36,153 nt of DNA. It comes from a virus (lineage: Duplodnaviria > Caudoviricetes). Below, one piece after another: positions 4,837 through 36,153 of this stretch. The stretch covers positions 1 to 36,153 of IMG/VR virus record IMGVR_UViG_3300032608_000364; one strand, 5' to 3'. Each line of letters opens with the position of its first letter. Position 1 is the stretch's first letter. Position numbers and translations under genes: made by a program. The notes under the pieces are model-generated. The model did no database searches. It was not told the DNA's origin and saw only the letters and a list, made by a program, of their open reading frames with translations.

Positions 4837-5142
4837 TTATATGCTTTTCCTCTTGGTTTTCCGTGGTTTGTATTTTCTTTTAGGCTTTTTAACTTTAGGC
4901 TCAATAATTATGACTTCTGGCCCATCGACTGATAGATTGTTATACCAATCATTAGTTTCCTGTACTTCCGGTTCCTCTATAATAGGCTCAACCACTTCAG
5001 GTTCTTTAACAATAGGCTCAGGCTCTTTATATTCAATACCCTTGCATAATGTTATAAGCAGAGTCTTTTGACCAGGAGTTACATCAATGATTTCCCTGGC
5101 CTTATACCATCTCCAATTTTCTGTAAGCATTATTTTTGCCAT
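4837..5142 (-). CDS. Hypothetical protein: ~35-aa N-terminal module, EP-rich linker, basic tail
   Basis: ATG 5142 after GGAG; N-terminus is similar to the C-terminus of the 710-aa glycosyltransferase. Confidence 0.65.
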   Translation of the reverse strand: MAKIMLTENWRWYKAREIIDVTPGQKTLLITLCKGIEYKEPEPIVKEPEVVEPIIEEPEVQETNDWYNNLSVDGPEVIIIEPKVKKPKRKYKPRKTKRKSI

Positions 5143-5144
5143 TT

Positions 5145-5552
5145 TTATTTCTCCAATAATACGGTATATTCTACTGGTTGATGCCAAACACCATCCTCTG
5201 CATCCCTCATTAATGGTAGTACAAAACTACGCTCAAACTTTAAACCAGAATAACCAGTAATTGATATAATATGATCATCAAAATATGCAGATAGATATGT
5301 ATAGATATTTAGTGCTTCAGTAGACGAAGGACTACTTGAAAATATAGAGAATTGAAGCGTGAAAGTCTCATGTATCATATCACCAAACCAATATTCCGGT
5401 ATCTCTGACACCATGCTATAAACAATATATGGTAGTGTAGCGCCTTGTGGAGCTTCGGTTAAATAGAACCGCCCACCAACCGAAGTGTAAAGGCTGCCTG
5501 CGCTACCCGCTGCAAAGTATGTGTATATTGCTGTGAATAATAGTTTAATCAT
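5145..5552 (-). CDS. Tail completion/terminator protein (DUF3168, gp17-like)
   Basis: GRFYLTEAPQGATLPYIVY...LQFSIF; follows the gp10-like gene. Confidence 0.75.
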   Translation of the reverse strand: MIKLLFTAIYTYFAAGSAGSLYTSVGGRFYLTEAPQGATLPYIVYSMVSEIPEYWFGDMIHETFTLQFSIFSSSPSSTEALNIYTYLSAYFDDHIISITGYSGLKFERSFVLPLMRDAEDGVWHQPVEYTVLLEK

Positions 5553-5911
5553 CTTTCGTATTTAGCAAAAGCTCGGTCATATTCTATGGGCAATTCTGCT
5601 TTATGCTTATCCTTAGCTGGCCTCATAAATGGTTGTGCAGCCATGTGTCTTGTTTTGTGCAACCCCATCTCAACATGACTTGCGTAATACCTACCAGCCG
5701 ATTTATCACCATAAGCAATTACTCTATAGCCTCCCTCCTTACCTCCTATCTTTTTGACTTCAATACTATTCGCTAATGCACCAGTCTTTTTAGGGCAACG
5801 AGACTTTGCACTGGCAGCTATCTTTTCAGCAACTACCTTACATGCTGTATCATTTGCACCAGTAACAGCCGCTTCCAAAGGATAATCATTCCATATAATT
5901 GTCGGTTGCAT
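5549..5911 (-). CDS. HK97 gp10-family neck protein
   Basis: AKSRCPKKTGALANSI...YASHVEMG...MAAQPFMRPA. Confidence 0.85.
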   Translation of the reverse strand: MQPTIIWNDYPLEAAVTGANDTACKVVAEKIAASAKSRCPKKTGALANSIEVKKIGGKEGGYRVIAYGDKSAGRYYASHVEMGLHKTRHMAAQPFMRPAKDKHKAELPIEYDRAFAKYER

Positions 5912-6249
5912 TAAATTTCTTCCTCTGCTAAAAACTCCAGCGTAATATTTTTTTCATCATTGTTAATTATACTTCTGATATTGAAATACCTTGCACCAGC
6001 CGGATCATTAAATTTAATTCTCATGGCAGCCGTTACACCAGTTCGATATCTAATGCGAATACGATGAGTGATCTGTAGCTCCAGTTTAGCAGCTTCGAGG
6101 CGTTCAGTGGAACGTAGGGGCCATATACTTGCTCGTATGCCAGAACCGTCTGAAATTGCTGTAAAAACAATAGTTTCGCCGCCCATTCCATCAGATGTTG
6201 CTTTCCCAGATTCAATATCTATGCTATGCCGAAGCGATCCCGATCGCAT
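5911..6249 (-). CDS. Head closure protein (SPP1 gp16-like)
   Basis: MRSGSLRHSIDI...DGMGG...THRIRIRYR...MRI...FNIRSI. Confidence 0.85.
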   Translation of the reverse strand: MRSGSLRHSIDIESGKATSDGMGGETIVFTAISDGSGIRASIWPLRSTERLEAAKLELQITHRIRIRYRTGVTAAMRIKFNDPAGARYFNIRSIINNDEKNITLEFLAEEEI

Positions 6250-7291
6250 AATCCATCTCTCCCCTATGAGTATTTAAATGACAAGCTCGACATAAAGTAA
6301 TTCCATTACTAATATCAAACCTTAATTCAGGATAATCTTTAAATGCTTCGATATGATGGGCAATGATATTTCCTTTTTCACAATGTATCCCACATTCCTG
6401 GCACGTCCAATAATCTTTCACATAGACTTGGTTTCGCCATATTTTGTATTTATCATCTTTACGTAATTTATCATATATAGAAGAAAGACCACCTTTCCAG
6501 TTTGGATGGTCTACTCCCATATTTTCACCCTTTCTAAATTCAGTAGCTATACTATAATGTACTCCTTTTTTGAATTCAGTATGTGGTGCAATCCTAACAC
6601 CTTTCCTTGCTTTATGGACACATTTCCTCGAACAATATTTCTGGTTCTTGAAACTCAATTGAACAGTAAATATTTTCCCACAAGTTTCACATACCTTATT
6701 CATTCTATTTGATTCATTATAACATTTCCTCGAACAATATTTTTGTGTACCACCTTTAGAGATAAATTCCTTTCCACATTCTTGACATTTATATCCTGCC
6801 CATTTACTTATATGTCCTCGTTTCAATGTAGGGATATTATATTGTTTCAATAATCTACTAACAGAGTTAACACCAATATTTAATTCAATAGCACATTTAG
6901 CAATGGTCGATTTCTGTTCTACATATAATTCATTAAGTTTCTCTTTACTTATTTTGTCTATCAGCCTTATTGGTGGTAGTTTTTTTATAACAGGAATACG
7001 AGGCTTCCTTATAGCGACTGGACACCTACATGCTTTACTACAATATATTTGATTCCAACTTTTTATCAGGAATGCCTTATTGCATCTTTTACATAATATT
7101 TCAATTTCAAGCCTACAATATTTTGGAGTATTATTCCATCTCTCACGTCTTGACCTCACAATTCTACGACATGGTGTGCAATATATCTGTTTATATCCAC
7201 CAGTAAATGTTCCACCACATTCTTTACAAGTGAAAATACATTTTCTTGCTTGACTTTTCCTCGGAACTTCTATAAAGTTTGATTCAGCCAT
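6224..7291 (-). CDS. Free-standing HNH endonuclease with repeated CxxC...YCSxxC modules
   Basis: C-terminal TCQECG...AHHIEAF...NGITLCRACH and HPNWKGG; likely start ATG 7291 (or 7300) after GGAG. Confidence 0.85.
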   Translation of the reverse strand: MAESNFIEVPRKSQARKCIFTCKECGGTFTGGYKQIYCTPCRRIVRSRRERWNNTPKYCRLEIEILCKRCNKAFLIKSWNQIYCSKACRCPVAIRKPRIPVIKKLPPIRLIDKISKEKLNELYVEQKSTIAKCAIELNIGVNSVSRLLKQYNIPTLKRGHISKWAGYKCQECGKEFISKGGTQKYCSRKCYNESNRMNKVCETCGKIFTVQLSFKNQKYCSRKCVHKARKGVRIAPHTEFKKGVHYSIATEFRKGENMGVDHPNWKGGLSSIYDKLRKDDKYKIWRNQVYVKDYWTCQECGIHCEKGNIIAHHIEAFKDYPELRFDISNGITLCRACHLNTHRGEMDYAIGIASA

Positions 7292-7298
7292 GACACTC

Positions 7299-7394
7299 AT
7301 CTCCGTGTTAGATGGGTTATTGGTTAGAAATGGCATGGGGTTCACGCCCTGTGCCATTTCGTTATATTGTAATATATTCGCTAACATAAGTCAA
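7299..7394 (-). promoter_or_regulatory. Sigma70-type promoter + hairpin + RBS cassette, copy 1
   Basis: TTGACT-N17-TACAAT, AAATGGCA...TGCCATTT stem, then GGAGAT; near-identical copy at 27608-27703. Confidence 0.7.
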
Positions 7395-9957: not shown

Positions 9958-10128
9958 TTAAGGTTCTATGAATTTACCATTTGTAATTATACCCAGCTTG
10001 CCATTTTCCCTTATTAAATGTTCATCTATCATTTCCTCTATTACATCTGATAAATTATATAAGTTGTAATAGCTTTCGTTGATAGCGTTTAATGCTTTTA
10101 TATATTCCTCATTGATTACTAAATTCAT
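9958..10128 (-). CDS. Small hypothetical protein (56 aa)
   Basis: MNLVINEEYIKAL..., preceded by GAGG; below the track cutoff. Confidence 0.4.
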   Translation of the reverse strand: MNLVINEEYIKALNAINESYYNLYNLSDVIEEMIDEHLIRENGKLGIITNGKFIEP

Positions 10129-10135
10129 AGCAACC

Positions 10136-10294
10136 TCATTCGATTATTTTAGTCCAGTTAGTTCCATCATAAGTGATATATCTGTCCTTAGTATTGTACT
10201 CAAAGAACTCTGCCCCTACTTCCACGCCAGTTGGTTTGGTGTCAGTAGATAAACCGATATATTTTCTGATGAAATCTATTAGTTTGACTGCCAT
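10136..10294 (-). CDS. 52-aa protein paralogous to the N-terminus of 8950..9780
   Basis: MAVKLIDFIRKYIGLSTDTKPTGVEVGAEFFEYNTKDRYITYDGTNWTKIIE; GAGG upstream. Confidence 0.8.
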   Translation of the reverse strand: MAVKLIDFIRKYIGLSTDTKPTGVEVGAEFFEYNTKDRYITYDGTNWTKIIE

Positions 10295-10366
10295 TTTCAA
10301 CCTCTATAGGGAAGAGTTGCCCCTCCCCTATATTACGTTAATGCAACGATCCACTAATTAGTTTAA

Positions 10367-11440
10367 TTAACTCCGGTTTTGCCAGCAGCGTACATAATCA
10401 ACTGACATTACTCCAAGACCTGCACCACTTGCCTTATACAATCCAAGATGAGGCTGTGACTTAGCGTTTGCCGCACTTGCAACATTGGAAAAAGTCGTGC
10501 TGGCTGCTACCCTCGCACCATCAATGAAAAACTTGATATCGGTCTGAGTTGTACAGTCAATTCTAAAGATGTTATATGTTCCAGCTACAAGGGTTGTCGT
10601 TGTGGCTGCCGCTGTATCGGTGGCAGCGTCATCACTTTCACAAGTAACAATCCCGCCAGCCGGTACTTCAAAGCCTACCCTGTAAGCACTTCCCCCATCT
10701 GCCCATGCACCCCATAGGCCAAAAGAGGCGACTCCAAGCAAAGTCGGTAAAGTAGTTAACGAAAGTCTTGTCTCAAAGATAGCACCCTGAGCAATACTTA
10801 AAGCAAGCTGGTCATCCCAATGTAAGGCAGCATCCTGTTTTTGGGCATCAGCGGTTAATGAACAAAGGACATGAGCATTTACTACATCCGCAGACTTCGC
10901 AACCGTTGGAGGCGCAGCGCCCACTAACTTCTTTGCCCATTTACAACCAGATTCAACATCTGTCCCTGATGTAGTTGCTCCTAAAGTCCCAGCTCCGTCA
11001 ACTGTCATATTAGATGATGCCTCTGTGAAAACCAGGGAATTCCCTGCTGAGCCTCTAAGTACTACTGTAATAACAACAGTATCTCCGGCTCCATCAACTG
11101 CTGTAACACTCGCAAGATCGGCTGTAACTGCTGTAACTATATTAGTCACCGCAGCCGCTGCATTTGCACCGATAGTGACTTCACCAGCAATAGCACGAGC
11201 TGCCTTCCAAGTAAAAGTCTGAGTATCAATTACAAAAGTTTCATTGGCAATAGCAACTCCTGCCATCGTAATAGTACCTTGTGCTGCAATAGCAATATTA
11301 GATATTACTAAATCAGCCCCGGCAAAATCATCACCAAAACTACCTGGATACATAGCAAGTAAGGTTTCATAAGTGCTATTGTCATAGAAACATTGCTTCC
11401 CGGTGTTCATCCAATTATATTCGCAACTTGTTCTACCCAT
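10367..11440 (-). CDS. Putative virion protein, paralog of 11453..12202 with a ~110-aa insertion
   Basis: Shares YDNSTYETLLA and GTYNIFRxDCTTQTxIKFFIDGARVAASTTF with its neighbour. Confidence 0.65.
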   Translation of the reverse strand: MGRTSCEYNWMNTGKQCFYDNSTYETLLAMYPGSFGDDFAGADLVISNIAIAAQGTITMAGVAIANETFVIDTQTFTWKAARAIAGEVTIGANAAAAVTNIVTAVTADLASVTAVDGAGDTVVITVVLRGSAGNSLVFTEASSNMTVDGAGTLGATTSGTDVESGCKWAKKLVGAAPPTVAKSADVVNAHVLCSLTADAQKQDAALHWDDQLALSIAQGAIFETRLSLTTLPTLLGVASFGLWGAWADGGSAYRVGFEVPAGGIVTCESDDAATDTAAATTTTLVAGTYNIFRIDCTTQTDIKFFIDGARVAASTTFSNVASAANAKSQPHLGLYKASGAGLGVMSVDYVRCWQNRS

Positions 11441-13636: not shown

Positions 13637-14609
13637 TAACCGCTTCTTTGATATCAAAAGGCCAAACATAGCTGGAATGACCTATCAAATTTTGCACTCT
13701 TTTGCATATTCTCTATGGCTGGCAATAATTGTAAATTATCTAAAGCAAAACATTTCTTAAAATCCATCTGTTCAGGTGAATCAAAGTTGAAAGAAGACAT
13801 TGGAATAATATGATCTATGTGGAGAATATTGTTACCATTTACAAAATCATTCTTCCATGAATAGCCTTGCGGAATGGTCGATTTTAATCGTTCTATTAAA
13901 TCCTCTAAGCTATAATCAACCAATTCTTCCCAATGCCTACCAGCTTTCCTCTGCCTTATTGCTTTTCTCATAGCTGCTGCAACCCTTTTTCGGATTTTCC
14001 GCTTTTCAGGAGTGCCACCATTATAATTAGGATTGTTAGCACCTCTCAAATTTTCCGACCGCCATTTATTAAAGCAATCTGTTCCTTTACAAAAATGCTT
14101 ATTATATAAATCATCCATACAAGGTGAAATTTCAAATCCCTTTCCACAACAAGTACATGCAACTTTTATTTTACCCTTATACATTCCATTCTCTTCACCG
14201 CTTTTGATCCATGCACGATGTTCTATTCTACATTTCTCGCTACAATAGGATGTAGAATATTTCAAAGAAGGATAAACCATCTTGGTTTTATCACATCCAG
14301 GTTTTGAACATTCTACTTTGACCTTTCCACCTTTCCATGTAGGGTGATCTTTCCCAGCCCTATGAACCAAGCATCCACAACTATTAATTCTACGGCCTAA
14401 ATCACCACTTTGAACAATTTTAATTCCACCACAATCACATTTACATCCCCAAAGAGTATGACCATATTTATCTTTTGTAGACTTTTTGATTACAGTCAAA
14501 AGACCAAATCTTTGTCCTGTTAAATCTTTAAATTTTGCCATGTTTTTCCTTTGTTTAAGTAGTAAATATTCTTTTCATCATACTTACTACTATATCAAAG
14601 AAGCGGTTA
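13637..14609. repeat. 18-bp perfect inverted repeat bracketing the HNH gene
   Basis: TAACCGCTTCTTTGATAT at 13637-13654 and its reverse complement at 14592-14609. Confidence 0.9.
13654..14541 (-). CDS. Free-standing HNH endonuclease
   Basis: KDLTGQRFGLLTV...CKCDCG N-terminus; HIDHIIP...NLQLL...EN..K C-terminus. Confidence 0.85.
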   Translation of the reverse strand: MAKFKDLTGQRFGLLTVIKKSTKDKYGHTLWGCKCDCGGIKIVQSGDLGRRINSCGCLVHRAGKDHPTWKGGKVKVECSKPGCDKTKMVYPSLKYSTSYCSEKCRIEHRAWIKSGEENGMYKGKIKVACTCCGKGFEISPCMDDLYNKHFCKGTDCFNKWRSENLRGANNPNYNGGTPEKRKIRKRVAAAMRKAIRQRKAGRHWEELVDYSLEDLIERLKSTIPQGYSWKNDFVNGNNILHIDHIIPMSSFNFDSPEQMDFKKCFALDNLQLLPAIENMQKSAKFDRSFQLCLAF

Positions 14610-17851: not shown

Positions 17852-18556
17852 TTATTTTATTCTCATTGCATCACAAAACCCATATTTTCTTCTTTCCAAT
17901 ATGCAACTTGGAAGACCTTTCTTCTTTGCTAAAGCATAAATAATCTTTTTTCTCGAACGACTATCAAATTTCTTCCATGTTGGAAAATAGCTTAGTAAAT
18001 TTATTAACCTAAAATCCAGATAAGGAAGAAGTACTTCTATCTGCCCACTATTTTTATCCAAAGGAATTAATTGTTGTTTTTGAAGTTTTGCTAAATAACG
18101 AAAAAAGCTTTTTTCTCCTGGTTGCTTCATGTGGTAATAATAACCACCCATTAATTCATCAATGCCATCTCCGGTAATAATCCTTTTAACTCCCAATTTC
18201 TTTAAATTATTATAAAAAGCCCTAACGATTTCATCACCTGGGAGATCTCCTTCCTCTTTAAAAGTAGGTGGGATATAAGGCATAATATGACGAATAAGTT
18301 TTACCCCAAATTTATTAGCAATAAAATGTGAATTTATCGAATCCTCATGTTCAAAACTACAAGCAATAGTATAACAAGTAATATCTTTCCCATAAATATC
18401 CACTAAATAAGAAAGCAAAAGAGCCGAATCAACTCCGCCGGATAAAGATAAAGATTGACAATCTAATTCTTTAAGAATTTTAATTATCAAAAATTCTATT
18501 TTCGACAAAGAAGCCTCTTTGCCAACCTCTTTCCAATCTGCAGGATGTGCTATCAT
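17852..18556 (-). CDS. Asparagine synthase C-terminal-like PP-loop protein
   Basis: LSGGVDS, TGDGIDELMGGY, LPYLD, R.KYGF; no N-terminal glutaminase domain. Confidence 0.8.
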   Translation of the reverse strand: MIAHPADWKEVGKEASLSKIEFLIIKILKELDCQSLSLSGGVDSALLLSYLVDIYGKDITCYTIACSFEHEDSINSHFIANKFGVKLIRHIMPYIPPTFKEEGDLPGDEIVRAFYNNLKKLGVKRIITGDGIDELMGGYYYHMKQPGEKSFFRYLAKLQKQQLIPLDKNSGQIEVLLPYLDFRLINLLSYFPTWKKFDSRSRKKIIYALAKKKGLPSCILERRKYGFCDAMRIK

Positions 18557-19358: not shown

Positions 19359-21377
19359 CTATTGCGGACTTATCGAGCAGCTACACCCAATGTGAAGGGG
19401 AGGTGAAAAATGATCACCCCTAATCTTCATTCCTGTACTAACGCCTTTTGGTTGAAAATCTCCTTGACTAATAAATGGATATTCAATTCCTATCACTTTA
19501 TTATTTAAAGCAGCGCAATAAGGGCATGGTTTTGCGCTTGTATTTATCCATACTAACTTAGTAATCCCCCCTGCAATAAAAACGAATCTCGTTACTGCAT
19601 TATTTGCCCTAACTGTCTCGTTTGATGCAATTTTTTCTGGAGATTTTTCTTGCCACTCACCCACCCTTGTATCAATAGCGTCCCTCATTTCGTCCGGTTC
19701 AGTGTCCCTTAATATGGCCTGTAGTTGTCCTAAAGATGAACTTGTATGCCTTAACGAAAAAGTTTCATTATACTGCCTAATAAACTCTGCTAATTCAGGA
19801 GTCATTTCTGGTTTAACGCCTATCTCATTATTGGCTGCTCGTTCAATATCTTCTGCATATGTCATAAGTAGAGGAAACATGTCTTGTTCAATCGTTTTAC
19901 CGAATGTTTCGTAATAATTCTCCAGCCATTTACTAAATTGTGCTTTTGTTCGTTGCGTCAAGAGCTTATTGGCCGCTACTTTGACTGCCTTAGTTTCTTT
20001 TTCAACGAATCGTTGTGAGGTAGATACAAATAGTTTATGGTAGCTTTTCTGTATGCTGTTACGTTCACGTATTGAACGATATCCAGGTATAGAACGTTCT
20101 TCTTCGATGATTTCCTCTGCCACTTCTTCTGGTTCTGGTTCATTCCCGACATCGGGAATAGGCGGCGGTGGAGGCGGCGGTGCTAATGCCCTACTTAATG
20201 GCACCATATTTAACGGAACGAACTGTTCGTCACCATTTTTAGTCGGATTCATGTCCTCTTTAGCTCGAATTTCGTTGATTGTCATAGCACCAATCATGAA
20301 CATCTGATTATAGAACTTGCCCCTCGACTCAGCATCGCCCCTTAATAGCCCTTCAACTATATGCTTAAAGTAAAATTTACGGTTACGTTCTTTTGGTGAG
20401 AGTAATTGCAGGTCATACCCTTGCTCAAATCTCACTAACCAAGGCAAAACGGAATCAGTAACAAACTCGATTGCCTGATGTTCGATATTTGAGTAAGTCG
20501 AATGCGACATCTCTTTGATTTTATGAGGTGGTACATTAAACCATCGTGCTATTTCGTTGACTGAGAATACCCTGGACTCCAGGAATTGAGCATCTTCTGG
20601 GGGGATACCAAGCTGCTTCATTTCCATACCTTCTTCAAGGATAAGTAACTTATGAGACTTACCTAAACCAGAATATGTTTCCATAAGTGATTTCTGTAAA
20701 TTGTCGTATGCTTCTCCCCCTACCTTTCCAGGATGTTCAAAAACTGCCCCAGGATGCGTACCGGCTCCAAAAAACCTTGCCCCAAACTCCTCCATCGCAA
20801 GTCCGAGGCCAATTGTTTCCCTGGCATACGAAATAACTGAATATCCCTGGATACCGTCAAACCCTAATCCTGGAATATGTAACATTCTATTTCGTGGAAG
20901 TGGTATAGTTTCAGATCCGACTTTGACTTCGTATATTAATTCACCACTGATTCTTCTAATTACAACCCTGTTTGGAGGGATGGGCCATAATGCTATTACT
21001 TCTCCCATACCATTACGCTGTATCTCTGCATAACAGTTACCCCAGCCAAGCACGTGAGCAGTCATTGTTTCCCTGAATGTCATAGCAGACATTTCGGAAT
21101 TAGGAGAAAAGTGAAGTAGATTATGTAAAGGTCGCCTATCTTCTACAACATTTCCCTGATTGGCTTTCTTTCGATATAAATTAAGTGGCAATCCGCCTAT
21201 CGTGCCGGATAAAAGAGCGATTGCGTTAAATACCGCTGAATAACTAAGGGCTTTATCGTAAGTTACATTCACGCCTGCGCTGGATTGTGCCCCGATTAAG
21301 TTCCAATAAGAAGTATCCCATGCCTTTTTGTCAGTTAGGCTAAGGTTTCGTTTGAAAATATTAGTCAGTAACCCCAT
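19359..21377 (-). CDS. HK97-family portal protein fused to a minor-head (Mu gpF-like) domain
   Basis: GNCYAEI, EIARWFNVPPHKI, YSNIE, LLRGD, TINEIR; poly-Pro linker; C-terminal CPYC...PPLHIGCSC. Confidence 0.92.
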   Translation of the reverse strand: MGLLTNIFKRNLSLTDKKAWDTSYWNLIGAQSSAGVNVTYDKALSYSAVFNAIALLSGTIGGLPLNLYRKKANQGNVVEDRRPLHNLLHFSPNSEMSAMTFRETMTAHVLGWGNCYAEIQRNGMGEVIALWPIPPNRVVIRRISGELIYEVKVGSETIPLPRNRMLHIPGLGFDGIQGYSVISYARETIGLGLAMEEFGARFFGAGTHPGAVFEHPGKVGGEAYDNLQKSLMETYSGLGKSHKLLILEEGMEMKQLGIPPEDAQFLESRVFSVNEIARWFNVPPHKIKEMSHSTYSNIEHQAIEFVTDSVLPWLVRFEQGYDLQLLSPKERNRKFYFKHIVEGLLRGDAESRGKFYNQMFMIGAMTINEIRAKEDMNPTKNGDEQFVPLNMVPLSRALAPPPPPPPIPDVGNEPEPEEVAEEIIEEERSIPGYRSIRERNSIQKSYHKLFVSTSQRFVEKETKAVKVAANKLLTQRTKAQFSKWLENYYETFGKTIEQDMFPLLMTYAEDIERAANNEIGVKPEMTPELAEFIRQYNETFSLRHTSSSLGQLQAILRDTEPDEMRDAIDTRVGEWQEKSPEKIASNETVRANNAVTRFVFIAGGITKLVWINTSAKPCPYCAALNNKVIGIEYPFISQGDFQPKGVSTGMKIRGDHFSPPLHIGCSCSISPQ

Positions 21378-21979: not shown

Positions 21980-22116
21980 GACGCCTCCATTGAACCGAGG
22001 CCATCATTGTAAGGTAGGTCTGGTTAGTTTTCGCCAACCGTCCTTGTTTGGGTAGGTTATTTTGGCGGGTTAATTGATTATGGTCTTATGGTATCATCTC
22101 CTTTCATTGAAGATTA

Positions 22117-22336
22117 CGCATTTGGGTAGTGGGTTTCAACAAAAGACTGGCTCGCATATATATGTTGGGTTTTAAACTCTTATTAGCTCGCATTCTTATT
22201 CTGGGTTTCAATGAATTATTAGCTCGCATTGGAAACCTGAGTTTCAATTTCCATTTGGCTCGCAAACTGCTATTGGGTTTCACGGAACGGGTGGCTCGCA
22301 TTGCGACTGTGGGTTTCAAGTGCCTGCTGGCTCGCA
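22117..22336 (-). repeat. TIGR array 3: six 36-nt dual-spacer units
   Basis: TGCGAGCYA-A-TGAAACCCA-B. A/B: GCAGGCACT/CAGTCGCAA, CCCGTTCCG/ATAGCAGTT, AATGGAAAT/GGTTTCCAA, ATAATTCAT/GAATAAGAA, ATAAGAGTT/ACATATATA, GTCTTTTGT/CTACCCAAA. Confidence 0.93.
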
Positions 22337-22344
22337 TTTTATAT

Positions 22345-23439
22345 CTAACCTACATTTGCAAAACGAGATTCATCTCTCCCGACATCGGGAATCATAAACG
22401 GTTCAATCGCTTGATAAAGTTCTTGATACCGTTCAAGTTCCTTTTTAAGTTCATATATCGTTCCCTTCAGTTTAATAATTTGTTTATCTTTTGCCTTGAT
22501 TATCCTATATGCATCATTAAGCTCTTGCGATGATAGATCAATTCGTCTTTCAAAGTCCTTAACATCCAGCCTTTCTTTCTTTTCAGGTACAGGTTTACTA
22601 TATACGTGGATAATGTCTGCAATCTGCTCCCGCTTGATAGGCTTTTTAAGGACAGAGTCTTTTTTCTTGATTTCCGTTAATACGGTTTTCAGTTTCCCAA
22701 CTCCACACTTGTTCTTAATCCGAGTTATAAGCCCCGTTCCATGCTCCATAGCCTCTTTCTCAAAATTAAAATAGGCTATCCGTTTGTCATAGTAAGCATT
22801 GTATCTGATACCAAAGACATCCAGTAAGTAAACTTTGAATGGTGAGTTTTTGTACCTCGGATTTTCCTTGTACCTTTTAGTTAGCTCCAAATAAAACAGC
22901 AATTCAACTCCGGCCTTGTCATTTTCTGCTAAGGTTTTCTTGCTTTTCATGAACAAATGTTCAATCTGTGTAATACTTAACGCATTGTATTTTGTTTTTA
23001 ATGCTTTTGCATCCATGTTATTATCTCCTTTCATAACGGTTTTATTGTTTTCAGACAAATCAACAGCCCATTTCATTAAGTCACCACTAAAGTCATAGGT
23101 CTCAAATGTACCTTTCGTATAGTTCCAATGTTCAACAACTCCTATAGAAAATTCCTTTACATTAATTGGATCATAAACTCTCCACTCCCATTTAAGTGAT
23201 TGACTTTTATATTTCCAATAAGATTTTATAGGTAGTGGACACTCTAAAGTACCTATAAGGCTACCAGTTACCTTTTTTTTAATACGAAAATTAGCTTTGA
23301 GTACATCTAAATCAAAAAGATAAAGATATTGCCCAAAATAAGATATAAATTTATTCTGACTAAAATAGATACAATTATCCTTACCGTTTGGTTTCAATAC
23401 TCTTAATCTCTTATCAGAAACATGGCATAAAATTATCAT
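22345..23439 (-). CDS. Hypothetical protein between arrays 2 and 3; internal start at 23016 gives a 223-aa helical/coiled-coil protein
   Basis: AAGGAGA precedes in-frame ATG 23016 (MDAKALK...); heptad-rich C-terminus. Confidence 0.65.
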   Translation of the reverse strand: MIILCHVSDKRLRVLKPNGKDNCIYFSQNKFISYFGQYLYLFDLDVLKANFRIKKKVTGSLIGTLECPLPIKSYWKYKSQSLKWEWRVYDPINVKEFSIGVVEHWNYTKGTFETYDFSGDLMKWAVDLSENNKTVMKGDNNMDAKALKTKYNALSITQIEHLFMKSKKTLAENDKAGVELLFYLELTKRYKENPRYKNSPFKVYLLDVFGIRYNAYYDKRIAYFNFEKEAMEHGTGLITRIKNKCGVGKLKTVLTEIKKKDSVLKKPIKREQIADIIHVYSKPVPEKKERLDVKDFERRIDLSSQELNDAYRIIKAKDKQIIKLKGTIYELKKELERYQELYQAIEPFMIPDVGRDESRFANVG

Positions 23440-23454
23440 AGGATACCCATCTTT

Positions 23455-23649
23455 TTAATTTGTATATATCACATTGACCTTTTTATATGATCTTCCGTTT
23501 AAGAGAACACCCTCCCCTATTTGTTTACACTCCTTGCTTGTTAATGGTGTATCACCCTCTGGGGTTTCCATCGCAACTGCCATGAAATTGGGTTTATAAA
23601 GTTTATCTCCTTCCTCTACAAAATAACAATTGTTTATTTTTTTCATCAT
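23455..23649 (-). CDS. Small hypothetical protein directly after array 2
   Basis: AAAGGAGA RBS; 64 aa. Confidence 0.6.
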   Translation of the reverse strand: MMKKINNCYFVEEGDKLYKPNFMAVAMETPEGDTPLTSKECKQIGEGVLLNGRSYKKVNVIYTN

Positions 23650-23682
23650 AAGTCTCCTTTCGTTTAAATTGTTAATGGTTTA

Positions 23683-23902
23683 CGCATTTTTTTGATGGGT
23701 TTCAAAGCACGCCTGGCTCGCAAGCTATAAATGGGTTTCAAGTCTGCTTTGGCTCGCATGCAAAAATTGGGTTTCAAGTCTGCTTTGGCTCGCATCTTCC
23801 AAGTGGGTTTCAACCTGTACTTGGCTCGCATACTATCACTGGGTTTCAAACGAGTACTAGCTCGCATTTTGGCAGTAGGTTTCAAATGACTCATAGCTCA
23901 TG
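23683..23902 (-). repeat. TIGR array 2: six 36-nt dual-spacer units
   Basis: A/B: TGAGTCATT/CTGCCAAAA, GTACTCGTT/GTGATAGTA, AGTACAGGT/CTTGGAAGA, AAGCAGACT/ATTTTTGCA, AAGCAGACT/TTTATAGCT, GGCGTGCTT/TCAAAAAAA. Starts 4 nt after the tas stop codon. Confidence 0.93.
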
Positions 23903-23906
23903 TCAT

Positions 23907-24803
23907 TTATGCTGCCTTTTTCAATTCCTCCCAATAGTACGGCAATATCACATCGTGCCCTAAATGCTTTCCGACATACGGTTCTGTAACGGGCAAACCG
24001 TCTAACGTCCTTGCCACTTGCCAAAAGTGGCTTAAAAATAGCTTTGCCGCTTCGTTCCGTGCCGCATTATGAATATGTCCCTTTTTCCAAGGAATTTCCC
24101 TGGCATCATTCTTCTTTAAATGCTTTTCCTTCTGTTTCAACATAAAAGCCTTGTAAGGATATTCCTCGCTCTGGCGATTGAACTGATCTCCAACTTGAAA
24201 TGTTATTGTCCGGCCTTTTGTTGACCAGTCCACCTGAGTACCCTTTTTACGCTTAGGCATTTCCCCATCAACAACATGCCTTCCTAAGTAATGCCACCAA
24301 CTTGAAATATTAGCGAAGTCCTTGATTTCGATTTTATGTTGCAGGTTGCCCTCGCCTTTAACTGACTTCTGACACGCCTCGCAAAATAAAGTATTGAATT
24401 CCTTCCCTGTTTTTTCGTCAATAACAGTTTTCTTGATAAGCCCACCTTTGCAGTCTGGACATATCGTAATAAACCGATAATAATACATGATTATCAGGTT
24501 TGCCGCTATTGTTGGGCCAATCCCAGGTACTTTCTCCATCCATTCTGTCCAGATAGGCCACTGATTGAGTTCTTTTTCGATCCGTCTTGTTAGTTGGCCT
24601 CTTATGGATTCCAGACCTTGATATTTTATGGTTTGTTTGTCTTTCGACTCTATCTCGCCGTATAGAAGCGGATCGTGCTGGACTTCCGTTTCAGGGGTTA
24701 GAGATTGCAGCCGATTTTTGGTTGACGTGATCAACTTAATCAATCCCTCGTAACTCCTAACTAAGTAATTTAAATTAGTAATTGTGTCTGTTTGAATATC
24801 CAT
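23907..24803 (-). CDS. tasA: TIGR-associated Nop-domain protein (TasA-like, no nuclease domain) with zinc-ribbon insertion, 298 aa
   Basis: Coiled coil, WMEKVPGIGPTIAANLI, FANISSWWHYLG, KRKKG...WS, HIHNAARNEAAKLFLSHFW...PY...LGH (Nop/IS110 C-terminal-like); AAGGAGG before ATG 24803; flanked by arrays. Confidence 0.85.
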   Translation of the reverse strand: MDIQTDTITNLNYLVRSYEGLIKLITSTKNRLQSLTPETEVQHDPLLYGEIESKDKQTIKYQGLESIRGQLTRRIEKELNQWPIWTEWMEKVPGIGPTIAANLIIMYYYRFITICPDCKGGLIKKTVIDEKTGKEFNTLFCEACQKSVKGEGNLQHKIEIKDFANISSWWHYLGRHVVDGEMPKRKKGTQVDWSTKGRTITFQVGDQFNRQSEEYPYKAFMLKQKEKHLKKNDAREIPWKKGHIHNAARNEAAKLFLSHFWQVARTLDGLPVTEPYVGKHLGHDVILPYYWEELKKAA

Positions 24804-24838: not shown

Positions 24839-25063
24839 TAGCTCGCACTCATTAATTGGGTTTCACACGACAACTGGCTCGCATTTTCCTTAGGGGTTTC
24901 AAACCTTTAATGGCTCGCATTCCACTAATGGGTTTCAATTTCCAAATGGCTCGCAATATTATTCTGGGTTTCATCGGATCCCTGGCTCGCACTGTCCATA
25001 TGGGTTTCAGGCATAAAATGGCTCGCATCTCCGGCTTGGGTTTCAACATATCCCTGGCTCACA
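24839..25063 (-). repeat. TIGR array 1: six 36-nt dual-spacer units plus closing repeat
   Basis: A/B: GGGATATGT/AGCCGGAGA, TTTTATGCC/TATGGACAG, GGGATCCGA/GAATAATAT, TTTGGAAAT/TTAGTGGAA, TTAAAGGTT/TAAGGAAAA, GTTGTCGTG/ATTAATGAG. A degenerate seventh unit merges with the tas RBS. Confidence 0.93.
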
Positions 25064-25129
25064 AAAAAACCCCGCCGAACTCCCGTGCACGATGAAGATA
25101 ACAGTTTCATCCAGGAATCCAGCAGGGTT
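25063..25129 (-). terminator. Terminator-like long hairpin with U7 tract immediately before array 1
   Basis: AACCCTGCTGGATTCC...GGGAGTTCGGCGGGGTTTTTTT. Confidence 0.6.
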
Positions 25130-25215
25130 GATTTTTCAGTTACCCTTACAAGGGATGCTTAGGAGGTTTACATGTGGCCTCATATCCTCCCCAGTTACCT
25201 CCATCGTGCAAAACC

Positions 25216-25244
25216 AACGTATCACAGCCAAATCGAAATGTCAA
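25216..25244 (-). promoter_or_regulatory. Sigma70-type promoter of the TIGR-Tas operon
   Basis: TTGACA-N17-TACGTT with TG upstream of the -10. Confidence 0.6.
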
Positions 25245-26564: not shown

Positions 26565-27317
26565 TTATCCCTCTATAGAGGTCACTTTCAAGATAATGGC
26601 ATTCACCATTGTACCAGATATTTTAAAAGCTCCAGGAGGAAGGTTAATTGTCTCGAACTTATACTCCTTGACCTTATCCCAAAATGCCACCGTCTTTTTG
26701 TTTTGCCGAAACATAACCCCTACCGACATTACAGATACAAGAATACCACCTTCCTTTAAATGGAGTAAGGCTTTCAGGACATGCGAAACATCTTGCTGTT
26801 TAGTGAAAGGGGGATTCATGACAATACGATCAATAGCTACACCTATAACATATTGCAAAAAATCGCATTGATGAGTAGCAAACTTTTTATCAGCAAGAAC
26901 CTTTGCGTTCTCAGGATTCAACTCGACACATGTCACCCTACCATCCCCTGCAATTTCACGCATAGCCTCTGCAATATTGCCAGTTCCAGCCGATGGTTCG
27001 AGACATAAATGCCCGGGCCGAATTTCGGCTAATTCAATAAGCTGTTCGACTATGTTTTGAGGTGTCTCAAAGAATTGAAATTCCTTTTTAGGGTCAGTGA
27101 CCTCGCCAGTCAATAACACATTGTCAATTGCATCTGAAACAGTATATCCGAAGACATGACCTTTAAGTTTCCGGTTCCACTTTCCGCCAAGACACTCAAG
27201 GACTCTGTTGACTTCAAGGTAAACCTTGCGGTCAAGTTGACCTTCTGGTAAAAAGTATAAGTCCCCTTCGGTTTCTCCTCGCTCAATAATTTCTAAAATA
27301 TGCTGGTCTATGTTCAT
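26565..27317 (-). CDS. Amino-methyltransferase, probably DNA N6-adenine
   Basis: QFFETP, LEPSAGTG (motif I), MNPPF (motif IV), AF..SGT.V. Confidence 0.85.
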   Translation of the reverse strand: MNIDQHILEIIERGETEGDLYFLPEGQLDRKVYLEVNRVLECLGGKWNRKLKGHVFGYTVSDAIDNVLLTGEVTDPKKEFQFFETPQNIVEQLIELAEIRPGHLCLEPSAGTGNIAEAMREIAGDGRVTCVELNPENAKVLADKKFATHQCDFLQYVIGVAIDRIVMNPPFTKQQDVSHVLKALLHLKEGGILVSVMSVGVMFRQNKKTVAFWDKVKEYKFETINLPPGAFKISGTMVNAIILKVTSIEG

Positions 27318-27710: not shown

Positions 27711-29492
27711 TTAGGTAAAGCTAATAACTCCCCTCGTGGCGTAGACACTTGTCTGATCTTCATATCTAATCATTCTATCTAAAGCCATTATCATAGCTAC
27801 TATTCCATCAATCTTTTCTTTGGATTTCCTTTTATCTGGCTTATAATTTCCGCTCGGCCCAGTATGCACTACAACATTTGAGGCCATCCACGTGAGCACG
27901 GGATTATTTCCATGAGCTATTTTCTGGCTTAAAATTCTGATTTCTAATTCTTTTGTCGGAGGACTCATATCCCAGCCCTGAGATATTTCAATACAAAATG
28001 GTTGTTTAGGGTTTGTAGTATACTCTTGGTTCACTTTTGGCATCAAATCATAGGCATTATGGCGATCATATCCTATTTCTTTTATGTTATATTTCTTCAT
28101 TAATTCATCAATTCTATGTTTAATAAAATCATTATCGATAGCATTCCCTGGGGTGACCTCTATATACCCTTGACGTACCCAAACATCATAAGGAACTTTA
28201 TGGCTATGAACACGCTCATGAATATTATCTCCTGGTATCCAAAAAAAAGGAAGGCATTGTATTTTTTCATTCTCATTAATTGGTGTAAATAATAATACTA
28301 AAGATGTAAGATCAGATACACTTGCAAGATCAAGTCCAGCATAGCACTCACGGCCTATCAACTTCTCAGGATCGACCTCGTCATTGCATTCCCTCCACAA
28401 TCTCATATTTAACCAGGGATTTTCAGACTCCGTCCATACATCAAGGTGTTTTCTCAGGAAATTAGATAGTTCTGCTGGCATATTGCGGGCTTTAACGACT
28501 TTTTTCCTTAAATCTTCTAATTTACAGGATACTTCAAGGTTAGGGTTAGCTTTGAACCAGATAGGTTCGTCCTCCCAATTATCCCCTTCGTCAATCGTAT
28601 ATACTATTCCGAAGAACGATTCGTCTTTGAACTCGTCAGGTAGTTCCAGTAATTTTTCTGTATAGTTTTTCAGTTCGTAACAAATAGACTCTCTGTTAGT
28701 CCCAGCTGTCGTGATTCCAATCATAATTGGCTGGTCTCTGGAACCGATGCCAGTCTCTAAAACTTCCCATAATTTTCTATCAGCATGTGCGTGAACTTCA
28801 TCCACTATAGCTGTCGATACGTTTAGACCGTCCAATGTCTTGCTATCAGCTGCTAATGGCTCGAACTTTGAAGCAGTTTCGATAATATGAAGATTATCTC
28901 GAAGGATTGTGACTCTATTATTGAGGTCAGGGGAGCGCTTAATCATTTCTTTGGCATCGTTATGACAAATTTTAGCTTGGGCATGTTTAGTGGCAGCAAT
29001 ATATACTTCAGCCGCAGCTTCATTATCCTCCATAAATAGATAAATACCCAGACCGGCTACCCAAGTCGTTTTGCCATTTTTCCTAGGCACGATTATTAAT
29101 GCCTTATTAAATCGCCTAAATCCATCAGCATTCTTCCAACCGAATAAACAAGCGGTAATAAATTGCTGCCAAGGTTCAAGGTTAAACGGTTTATCATTAA
29201 ATCCACCCTTGTAGTGCTTTAGATAATCAGGGAAAAACCCAACTACCCTTGCGGCAGCTATGGGATCGAAAGAATATCCTTCCTTCGGTAGGTTTTTCAG
29301 GTCATTGAATTGTCTCTCAACTGCCAATTCGACCCATTTGCAAACATTGATTTTGCCAGAACGAACGTCATCGGCATATTGAGACCACCTATATCTCTTA
29401 TGTAGCTCACGATTTTCTTTATGAGGATTATCTTTCTTTATTTTAGCATACATATACCAGGCTTCTTCGGAAGCGTTTAGTTTTTTAGGCAT
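27711..29492 (-). CDS. terL: Terminase large subunit (HK97-like)
   Basis: LEPWQ, PRKNGKT (Walker A), IVDEVH (Walker B), ITTAG, GLDLAS, EKIDGIVA. Confidence 0.96.
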   Translation of the reverse strand: MPKKLNASEEAWYMYAKIKKDNPHKENRELHKRYRWSQYADDVRSGKINVCKWVELAVERQFNDLKNLPKEGYSFDPIAAARVVGFFPDYLKHYKGGFNDKPFNLEPWQQFITACLFGWKNADGFRRFNKALIIVPRKNGKTTWVAGLGIYLFMEDNEAAAEVYIAATKHAQAKICHNDAKEMIKRSPDLNNRVTILRDNLHIIETASKFEPLAADSKTLDGLNVSTAIVDEVHAHADRKLWEVLETGIGSRDQPIMIGITTAGTNRESICYELKNYTEKLLELPDEFKDESFFGIVYTIDEGDNWEDEPIWFKANPNLEVSCKLEDLRKKVVKARNMPAELSNFLRKHLDVWTESENPWLNMRLWRECNDEVDPEKLIGRECYAGLDLASVSDLTSLVLLFTPINENEKIQCLPFFWIPGDNIHERVHSHKVPYDVWVRQGYIEVTPGNAIDNDFIKHRIDELMKKYNIKEIGYDRHNAYDLMPKVNQEYTTNPKQPFCIEISQGWDMSPPTKELEIRILSQKIAHGNNPVLTWMASNVVVHTGPSGNYKPDKRKSKEKIDGIVAMIMALDRMIRYEDQTSVYATRGVISFT

Positions 29493-34355: not shown

Positions 34356-35066
34356 CTATGTATATTGTAATTTTAATGCTGGTTGAAATGGTGCATCCAA
34401 TTTAATATATTTACTTAAATTATCTTTAGCCCATAAAGGTTGTAAGTTCCTTAAAGCCCAACATCTTTTGAAGTCAAGGTCTTTGTAAGAAGTAAAATTG
34501 AAATGTATCTTTGGAATAACATGGTCTAAATGCCACTCACCATAATTATCCCAAGACATACCTGGTTTGAATTGCTTCTCAATATGTTTAACTAATTCTT
34601 GAAGAGTGTAATCCACTAATGATTCCCAATGACATCCATCTTTATTTCTTTTCAAAGAATAACTAATTGAATTACAAATATTATGATTCAATCTATATAC
34701 TGGGTTTTTCCTTCGTTCACAATTATACCTACGGATTGCTTCTTTTATTTCAGGCTTTAACCTATACTTATAATCATATTCACTTTTCTTCTTTTTCCCT
34801 TCAGGTGTTGAACGTCGTTTATGATCATATATACAAGCTTTCTCTTTGTATTCAATAGTTGATATATATTCACGTCGCCTCTTTATATTTTTAGGAATTG
34901 ATCGATATCTCTTCATATATTTACTGCGATTTTCTTTAACTTCAAATATTAAACTATGTTCACTTATACACTTTTTACATCTATGTTGATAACCATCTTT
35001 CCTTGTTTTATTTTTAGAATATTCACCTATTGGCTTTATTTCATTACATGTTGAACATAGTTTCAT
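34356..35066 (-). CDS. Free-standing HNH endonuclease
   Basis: CSTC...CKKC N-terminus; GMSWDNYGEWHLDHVIP...NLQPLWAKDNLSK. Confidence 0.85.
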   Translation of the reverse strand: MKLCSTCNEIKPIGEYSKNKTRKDGYQHRCKKCISEHSLIFEVKENRSKYMKRYRSIPKNIKRRREYISTIEYKEKACIYDHKRRSTPEGKKKKSEYDYKYRLKPEIKEAIRRYNCERRKNPVYRLNHNICNSISYSLKRNKDGCHWESLVDYTLQELVKHIEKQFKPGMSWDNYGEWHLDHVIPKIHFNFTSYKDLDFKRCWALRNLQPLWAKDNLSKYIKLDAPFQPALKLQYT

Positions 35067-35215: not shown

Positions 35216-35638
35216 TTAATTGCTCCCCTTTTCCATTTCATATTCTCTCCACCACTGTCGGATAATCTTTTCCCACAATGGCAACTGATCCTTCCTTCGT
35301 TTGTCATGTAGTATACGTTTGATACACTGCATTACTGGTACGTCTAATATTATGACTTCGTTCGGTCTGATCCCACAACAGGCTCTGTCTCTTTTCCTTT
35401 GTGTGGCCCCGCTTGTAATACACCAAACTGTGATGCCTTGTCGGATAGCTTGCAATAGGGCAGCGTTATGGGCAGCAAACACGGTTCGGAGTAAAATATC
35501 TGGCTTGTTGTAAACTGGCAATCCTGATAAAGAATGATACAGGCTATCAATATCAAGTATGCAATCTCTAGGTCTTATCCGTTCTTTAACATACGTTGTC
35601 TTGCCACTGGCCGGCGGCCCACATATCAAAGTCAGCAT
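35216..35638 (-). CDS. P-loop kinase/ATPase-like protein
   Basis: LICGPPASGKTTYV...LDID; likely start ATG 35638. Confidence 0.75.
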   Translation of the reverse strand: MLTLICGPPASGKTTYVKERIRPRDCILDIDSLYHSLSGLPVYNKPDILLRTVFAAHNAALLQAIRQGITVWCITSGATQRKRDRACCGIRPNEVIILDVPVMQCIKRILHDKRRKDQLPLWEKIIRQWWREYEMEKGSN

Positions 35639-35991
35639 AATAAGTTTTCCCTGCCTGAATGTTTGAAGCCATGACATCGTTTACATAGTGATTGTAAATT
35701 ATCTATTGCCATCGGATCACCGCCTTCCTCTGTGGGTACAATATGGTCCACGAGTTGAGTTTCTGTAATCAACCCCTCTGTCTGGCACATTTCACATAAT
35801 GGGTGCTGTCTTCTGTACCATGCCCTCAATTTCTTCCATCTTGCTGTACCATAGAACGGTATACTGGCCTTTTCCTGGCCATAATTCCTCTTTTGCTTAT
35901 TCAGGTGCTCGTGCTTCTCACAATAAGGGCCTTTTCGTGTAGTTAAAGGACAGCCAGGTGCGTTACAACTTTTGCCTGTACGATATGGCAT
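35632..35991 (-). CDS. Terminase-associated HNH endonuclease (HK97 gp74-like)
   Basis: FYGTARWKKLR...PLCEMC...VDHIVP...NLQSLCKRCH..KH. Confidence 0.9.
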   Translation of the reverse strand: MPYRTGKSCNAPGCPLTTRKGPYCEKHEHLNKQKRNYGQEKASIPFYGTARWKKLRAWYRRQHPLCEMCQTEGLITETQLVDHIVPTEEGGDPMAIDNLQSLCKRCHGFKHSGRENLLC

Positions 35992-36153
35992 TATCAATTT
36001 CCCCTTTCAACCTTAATTCCTTGAGCAATATCTTCTATCTTTCCTAACATGATAGAATTCCTGCCTGCAATTCTTATTTTCACATATTAGCTTGTGTAAT
36101 GTTCTATTTGACATACCCCCCCTATATACCCTTTTTTGGGGAAATCCCAGAAT

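Follow-up and report, generated by a model that had tools for sequence, protein, structure and literature searches.

What does a Tas protein without a nuclease do in a phage genome, and what might a four-cysteine insertion in its Nop region contribute? These questions are raised by a locus on a 36,153-nt stretch of viral DNA (Duplodnaviria; Caudoviricetes; IMG/VR record IMGVR_UViG_3300032608_000364), hereafter the window, by which the whole stretch is meant. The window belongs to a tailed phage with genes for the large terminase (27711-29492), portal (19359-21377), protease, major head and connector proteins, and a cassette of tasA, guide arrays and a partner gene sits between the terminase and the portal. 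Also present are HNH or endonuclease VII genes amid the head and packaging genes (13654-14541, 6224-7387, 34356-35066, 35632-35997), a DNA methyltransferase-like gene (26565-27317) and an asparagine-synthase-like gene (17852-18556). Sequencing runs containing most of the stretch carry a freshwater metagenome label and come from one study, with no RNA dataset among the runs listed. Relatives occur in nine genome records, mostly under titles of Deltaproteobacteria, Smithella or Desulfobacterales-related organisms, assignments that may reflect faulty binning.

The TasA protein and its guide arrays

The tasA gene occupies 23907..24803 on the minus strand and encodes 298 residues from an ATG at 24803, preceded at 7 nt by a GGAGGA read directly from the sequence, to a stop at 23907; the GTG at 24848 chosen by the ORF caller was rejected because it falls within array 1. 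The product is composed of a coiled coil (residues 5-79), a helix-hairpin-helix (about 83-108), the cysteine insert, a wedge loop (about 174-194) and a C-terminal end of Nop helices bearing the guide-processing pair Y276/H283. With phmmer, TasA matched TaTasR (9MTY) at E 2.9e-25 in two blocks (residues 69-105 to 155-191 and 160-294 to 196-324), and its sequence match to SpTasH (E 3.3e-4) followed the same two-block pattern, skipping residues 106-159. The AlphaFold2 model (pLDDT 93.9) adopts the Nop fold, with the insert modelled as strands, and superimposes on TaTasR with Z 21.4 and rmsd 2.6 over 201 aligned residues and on SpTasH (21KL) with Z 19.2.

In the structural alignment, TasA from residues 5-6 onward corresponds to 9MTY from residue 110 and to 21KL from residue 66. 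Because the coiled-coil helix begins at residue 5 in the model, a RuvC or HNH domain would have no room, and TasA as modelled is without a nuclease domain; the preliminary description, which had recognized no RuvC/DEDD or HNH motif, was correct on this point. The N-terminal RuvC or HNH domain that marks TasR or TasH is thus missing, and the IS110 DEDD RuvC-like family (PF01548) matched TasA only at profile positions 118-149 of 155 with E 0.077. Among relatives sharing the insert, N-terminal leaders are mostly shorter than 20 aa, and the longest leaders inspected contained no recognisable nuclease. The guide-processing residues are well conserved (Y276 in 115 and H283 in 107 of 120 aligned proteins) and align to SpTasH Y289/H296. 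With the coiled coil and Nop domain of dual-repeat TIGR-Tas proteins also in place, the product of 24803-23907 is a dual-repeat TIGR-TasA by every testable feature. TasA had a single phage match, confined to the core, and no plasmid match.

Three dual-repeat arrays of six units each lie on the minus strand: array 1 at 24839..25063, array 2 at 23678..23902, beginning 5 nt past the tasA stop, and array 3 at 22112..22336, beginning 9 nt past the partner stop. Together these supply 18 guides with UG and CCA boxes and a 36-nt period, each unit comprising a 9-nt edge repeat (TGCGAGCCA), a 9-nt spacer A, a 9-nt loop repeat (TGAAACCCA) and a 9-nt spacer B; edge and loop repeats were assigned from the truncated first and last repeats, after the procedure outlined in the available text of PMC12045711. 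Across 83 non-redundant loci, arrays lie within 2.5 kb of tas in 69, and in 42 of the 46 with flanks exceeding 600 nt. Repeats of 9 nt at an 18-nt half period were found in 68 loci, with a scan that assumed the period, and a free-period scan gave only 18. The 713 guides from these 68 loci have no spacer pair in common, and a relative in sequencing run X5 retains both genes (97 and 38 differences) with arrays that do not align; spacers therefore turn over. Within array 2 (23722-23803), adjacent units carry the same spacer A and different spacers B, a hint of duplication or recombination as arrays grow. In a number of loci (L001, L005, L007, L041, L060, L073, L075, L091, L101 and others) CGA closes the edge repeat and CCA the loop repeat, with G in 26% of the 713 edge repeats vs about 0% of loop repeats; the boxes of the two repeats are described as almost always covarying in the part of PMC12045711 available to us.

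Upstream of the cassette, a long minus-strand hairpin with a U run (25062-25139; -37.3 kcal/mol, z -4.4) abuts the first repeat of array 1 and could be a terminator or attenuator; 1 of 55 upstream flanks showed such a hairpin. Farther upstream on the same strand (25216-25244), a perfect TTGACA stands 17 nt from a weak -10 element, a pair that the promoter scan did not list; the scan for promoters and terminators performed at chance level.

The cysteine insert and the ribbon clade

The insert (24324..24488, minus; residues about 106-160) consists of a beta stalk and a predicted C4 zinc ribbon, with strands modelled at 109-114, 121-128, 135-141, 146-148 and 156-160. Its cysteines, C115/C118 (24450-24461, minus) and C141/C144 (24372-24383, minus), read exactly CPDC-X22-CEAC. 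The preliminary description had placed this motif within an insertion between the GIGP hairpin and the F...S.WW.YLG motif, as proved to be the case: 54 residues of TasA stand where TaTasR has 4 (between residues 191 and 196), a net insert of about 50 aa, and the GIG-to-F distance is 69 residues vs 18-19 in ordinary Tas proteins. The insert precedes the wedge loop (G210-K230 in TaTasR) in the segment called CTD1. A homologue search returned 168 proteins among 641 candidates, and in the alignment of 120 of these 168 (the query and 119 relatives, at 45-70% identity) the four cysteines and G152 are invariant in 120/120, so the insert is not a chance feature. The spacing between the knuckles varies from 8 to 25 residues and is mostly 12, hence X22 is not a conserved feature. 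Two cysteine knuckles and a beta hairpin, the architecture of a C4 zinc ribbon, are borne out by the cysteine conservation and the modelled strands, and on this basis the insert is predicted to bind zinc; ribbon-family Pfam matches in clade members are weak (e.g., Zn_ribbon_6 in 7/120). In four clade members (P0148, P0150, P0158 and P0166, the last at L047), extra cysteine pairs are found in the wedge loop or coiled-coil tip.

How far this feature extends among Tas proteins was assessed with an unindexed search whose results fell into 1,485 clusters at 50% identity; of these, 62 reached E 1e-30 or better. A census of the best 150 of the 1,485 clusters plus the query, a sample ranked toward the query and so giving no prevalence, contained 62 ribbon-bearing proteins, 60 with the 18-19-residue linker, 17 with other long inserts and 12 fragments. 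A tree built on core columns alone, without the insert, unites 61 ribbon proteins with P0138, a mis-scored member whose ribbon has a long tip, in one clade of 62 tips. FastTree support on either side of the root was 0.845 and 0.954, and a 69-row subsample recovered the clade in 30/30 cases with an SH-aLRT of only 45.3, the first split being the long-branch member P0170; support for the clade is accordingly moderate only. These alignments indicate that the ribbon marks one clade and is not general to TasA; FpTasA, TaTasR and SpTasH are without it. The suggestion that the protein represents a distinct TasA subtype was thus upheld, at the moderate support just given; for the extra DNA- or partner-binding module that was also suggested, the clade-confined neighbouring gene described below is a candidate partner.

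The same slot has been used by other lineages and is an insertion hot spot. P0230, outside the ribbon clade, carries a separate cysteine insert there, and zinc ribbons, as predicted from such cysteine patterns, entered TasA more than once. Three non-ribbon Tas proteins (P0175, P0186, P0198) contain in-frame translated guide-array-like repeats at this position. That unrelated inserts, even in-frame guide arrays, share the slot suggests a tolerant surface loop; we conclude that the clade is real and that the slot is tolerant. Elsewhere in the protein, a separate TasA group in Table S1 of PMC12045711 (node36774), a source available to us in part, shows an apparent double cysteine ribbon at the tip of the coiled coil, acquired independently. 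On one viral contig (L039), a ribbon Tas occurs along with a distant Tas-like gene that has no ribbon (5020-5934 and 9965-10855).

The partner gene and the possible functions of the cassette

The partner gene (22345..23016, minus) encodes 223 aa from an ATG at 23016 with AAGGAG upstream. An ATG at 23439 was rejected as the start; homologues begin at 23016, and contigs in runs X3, X5 and X8 skip the intervening stretch, joining array 2 straight to 23024-23034. This stretch, at 23017..23649 (minus) between array 2 and the partner, is a lineage-specific insertion, absent from homologues and skipped by some contigs; it includes a 64-aa ORF (23455-23649, minus) plus 141 codons in the reading frame of the partner.

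With the clade profile, 147 loci were fetched in addition to the window; 140 contain a clade Tas and fall into the 83 groups at 90% identity. A gene of 200-225 aa recurs beside tas at more than 100 bits in 58 of the 83 groups, and beside 31 of the 33 clade loci flanked on each side by 1.5 kb, in every case on the tas strand (51 downstream, 7 upstream), most commonly in the layout tas-array-partner-array; it was found in 0/74 non-ribbon Tas loci. The linkage is kept at median identities of 47% for Tas and 28% for the partner, and it survives reversed gene order and differing phage neighbourhoods. Distances in the Tas and partner trees correlate (Mantel rho 0.65 over 55 pairs; best of 999 shuffles 0.27), as shared descent alone would also predict, and since ribbon and partner map to one clade, their co-occurrence amounts to a single evolutionary event. 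The partner is not essential, as three loci (L031, L045, L051) have none despite long downstream flanks; a fourth (L047) has only a 42.6-bit piece. Partner-seeded viral scans gave 19 and 15 loci, mostly on contigs already found; of five new contigs, three have a clade Tas (one without a match to the cysteine pattern) and two start with the partner. Searches of 401 genomes gave strong matches in the two seed genomes only and are therefore not independent. In P0176, the N-terminal part of Tas is fused to a tail resembling the partner coiled coil, perhaps through deletion or misassembly between arrays; a search for longer fused forms of the partner found none, which is weak evidence.

The partner is modelled with high confidence (pLDDT 94.5) as all-helical, with a helical domain (residues about 1-140), a 55-residue coiled coil (about 151-206) and no beta strand, and it is of no known family. 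A faint likeness to DUF3102 / Plasmid_parti_N was detected (Atlas 0.91 at rank 6, BFVD E 0.14); PF11300 (DUF3102) was not among the 25 of 74 Pfam families listed for 44 partner members, had no match in the partner-bearing genome G004, and the family was found in 0/201 genomes searched. The fold matched nothing in the PDB at E 0.001 or better, VIA matches covered the coiled coil only, and a PDB sequence search returned only coiled coils and weak Pumilio-repeat matches. The partner had no match in 50,697 GenBank phage records and no ParB family among its listed Pfam or PHROG matches, and a ParZ-like identity was looked up and dropped, nothing linking the partner to ParZ. A complex prediction of TasA with partner residues 1-145 scored 0.00 and was counted neither way.

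That tasA across the clade lies nearly always beside guide arrays and the partner points to a two-protein, RNA-guided DNA-blocking system as its likely setting. Our preferred reading, to which we give an even chance of being correct, is that the nuclease-free TasA of this cassette binds guide-matched DNA and, without cutting it, blocks its use, the ribbon serving as a structural arm and a docking surface for the partner. Its starting points are established: a Nop fold, no nuclease domain, three dual-repeat arrays, the Y/H pair, a clade-restricted insert and a linked partner. By analogy with TaTasR, SpTasH and FpTasA, a TasA dimer would cut the array transcript into 36-nt guides, whose spacers A and B would pair with opposite strands of an 18-bp site, and by analogy with MbTasA, binding to DNA would repress transcription. 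The insert would exit the Nop domain immediately ahead of the position that corresponds to TaTasR R198, a box D contact, and the ribbon would occupy the place left by the nuclease, on the face against which RuvC packs in PateTasR and which bears hairpin B in PlTasA. The least secure step concerns the partner: this basic helical protein, with its long coiled coil, might form dimers, bind DNA and extend the block or make it more stable, the DNA binding being suggested by the same faint Atlas and BFVD matches. As spacers are replaced quickly, likely targets would be competing phages or host genes. Against this reading stand the variability of the ribbon tip (8 to 25 residues), the tolerance of the slot, the single event behind the co-occurrence of ribbon and partner, the few loci that have no partner and, as given below, the finding of no canonical target for any guide.

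Several other readings deserve consideration. The ribbon and the partner may act separately: TasA might bind and repress alone, with the ribbon stabilising the fold or touching unwound DNA, as would fit the guide contacts described for PlTasA hairpin B in the same slot (in the portion of bioRxiv 10.64898/2026.08.11.744272 available to us), while the partner separately regulates transcription of the cassette or promotes spacer turnover. We regard this as possible but on balance unlikely. Arrays flank the partner in most layouts, spacers turn over fast and TIGR systems are without known adaptation machinery as far as the available literature describes; however, most TIGR loci have arrays and no partner, which rules out a general acquisition factor, and no conserved operator-like motif was found at the cassette ends (55 upstream and 44 downstream flanks). 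It is very unlikely, in our estimate, that the clade ancestor picked up the partner once, as a hitch-hiker since kept by linkage, with the ribbon a neutral elaboration. The single origin of the clade would be accommodated, and small unrelated genes do lodge between arrays, as at 23017-23649 in the window, but the cysteines are invariant, and the partner persists on either side of tas at its low median identity whereas other small neighbour genes occur in at most 6 of 83 loci each. Least probable of all is a cryptic nuclease or recombinase activity supplied by the ribbon or partner: the insert is close to the surface that RuvC occupies in TasR, and R, E, Y and C residues are conserved in the partner, yet neither HNH nor an acidic cluster is conserved in the insert, no column is invariant across 44 partner sequences, and no Pfam or PHROG nuclease family is common to the partner's members.

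The guides themselves bear on a further alternative. From the rule of an 8-nt 3' overhang, we derived the canonical target as spacer A joined at its end to spacer B in reverse complement. Against three control geometries, no canonical excess was found for the window guides in 3.2 Mb of loci (both strands counted), or for the 713 guides in the non-redundant loci or in 1.18 of the 3.2 Mb of genome G001. An exact-match test spanning twelve geometry cells gave 0 canonical 18-nt matches over 5.5 million distinct 18-mers, and the same-strand geometry (A then B) gave 3 real exact matches vs about 0.19 per cell in shuffles. A fourth same-strand match (L004) was dropped as a duplication inside its own array, and the L102 match was rejected as a promoter target because it falls within an ORF. 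One guide of L060 (6332-6376), its spacers set end to end, matches exactly within a Cas12a gene (PF22222, E 2.7e-39) at L416:17807-17824 (G001:C120); the match is exact in 2 of 301 genomes of the target's order, and five one-mismatch matches fall in unrelated genes. The ribbon clade might thus read both spacers contiguously on one strand and silence host defence genes such as cas12a, a reading to which we assign little probability: twelve cells were tested, there is no excess at 1-2 mismatches, no other guide matches that cas12a above shuffles, guide and target come from different genome records, none of the 15 guides carried by the G001 phage is matched exactly in the 1.18 of 3.2 Mb of that genome, and same-strand reading contradicts the solved structures. 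The absence of an excess at 1-2 mismatches and of a second match makes the cas12a match a weak lead only. The 65 CRISPR spacer entries of G001, partly duplicated, had no match in ribbon-clade loci. Joined to our preferred reading, these elements would yield a two-component TIGR effector in which the ribbon, in place of the nuclease, forms a docking arm for a dedicated partner of a new family. Such a complex would silence rival phages or genes of host defence such as cas12a and might read both spacers on one strand; this fuller version is unlikely.

Comparison with known systems

A literature search found nothing further on an accessory gene or ParB with TIGR Tas, and the word "zinc" does not occur in the main texts of the TIGR papers searched. 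Five clade motifs searched against 9,182 rows of Table S1 of PMC12045711 retrieved no member, with a working positive control, a result that is suggestive only because the motifs would catch 84/120 close and 22/62 distant homologues; the clade may already be catalogued in the remaining Table S1 rows, fig. S14 or TIGRSafari.

In operons of tasA and tasParB, as presented in the available text of PMC12045711, TasA is likewise accompanied by a second gene, with arrays around and between the two and a partner predicted to dimerise through its C terminus, and a ParB-like associate is the only accessory of TIGR systems reported in the TIGR literature available to us. Those systems are described with repeats of 10 nt and with a partner that HHpred matches to ParB domains, CTPases among them, whereas repeats here are 9 nt and the partner model is all-helical; the partner is probably, though not certainly, distinct from TasParB. 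MbTasA and inactive TasR repressors (bioRxiv 10.64898/2026.09.09.750476, available in part) provide the precedent for nuclease-free, RNA-guided DNA binding, and it is from these that repression by the ribbon TasA would follow; the TasA repression reported there concerns stem-loop systems, outside the ribbon clade, and these repressors differ in having stem-loop guides and no Y/H loop. PlTasA hairpin B is an insertion in the same slot, beside box D (L198-R209 lies between the HhH helix and the TVSQLW motif, as counted on the Table S1 sequence), and differs, in the available account, in being 12 residues long, without cysteines and part of a stem-loop system.

The clade bears on the natural role of nuclease-free TasA and on the existence of TIGR accessory proteins. 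It offers a compact test case composed of a 298-aa TasA, canonical guides, one removable C4 module and a tightly linked 223-aa gene; ribbon and partner can be deleted separately, and the outcome would reveal a two-protein effector guided by RNA or else give a first way into the study of array turnover. A slot that tolerates large inserts may also be useful in engineering compact DNA-binding fusions.

With TaTasR (9MTY) and SpTasH (21KL, 9W03), the window TasA shares the coiled coil and Nop core, wedge loop and Y/H pair, but it has no RuvC or HNH domain and carries an insert between the equivalents of TaTasR residues 191 and 196. Its array repeats match those of TaTIGR and ParTIGR. A close counterpart is FpTasA, a dual-repeat TIGR-TasA (Faure et al. 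2025, PMC12045711) that is, in the available text, also a solo Nop protein in a phage context, with arrays flanking the gene, 36-nt dual-spacer units and UG/CCA boxes. FpTasA is described there as being without accessory domains or clear protein associations, and dual-repeat Tas proteins are said, in the part of bioRxiv 10.64898/2026.09.09.750476 available to us, to keep a compact core with minimal variation. The ribbon clade is an exception to that compact core, and what is new in it relative to known dual-repeat TIGR-TasA systems is the C4 insert of about 50 aa before the wedge loop together with a linked, clade-specific partner gene.
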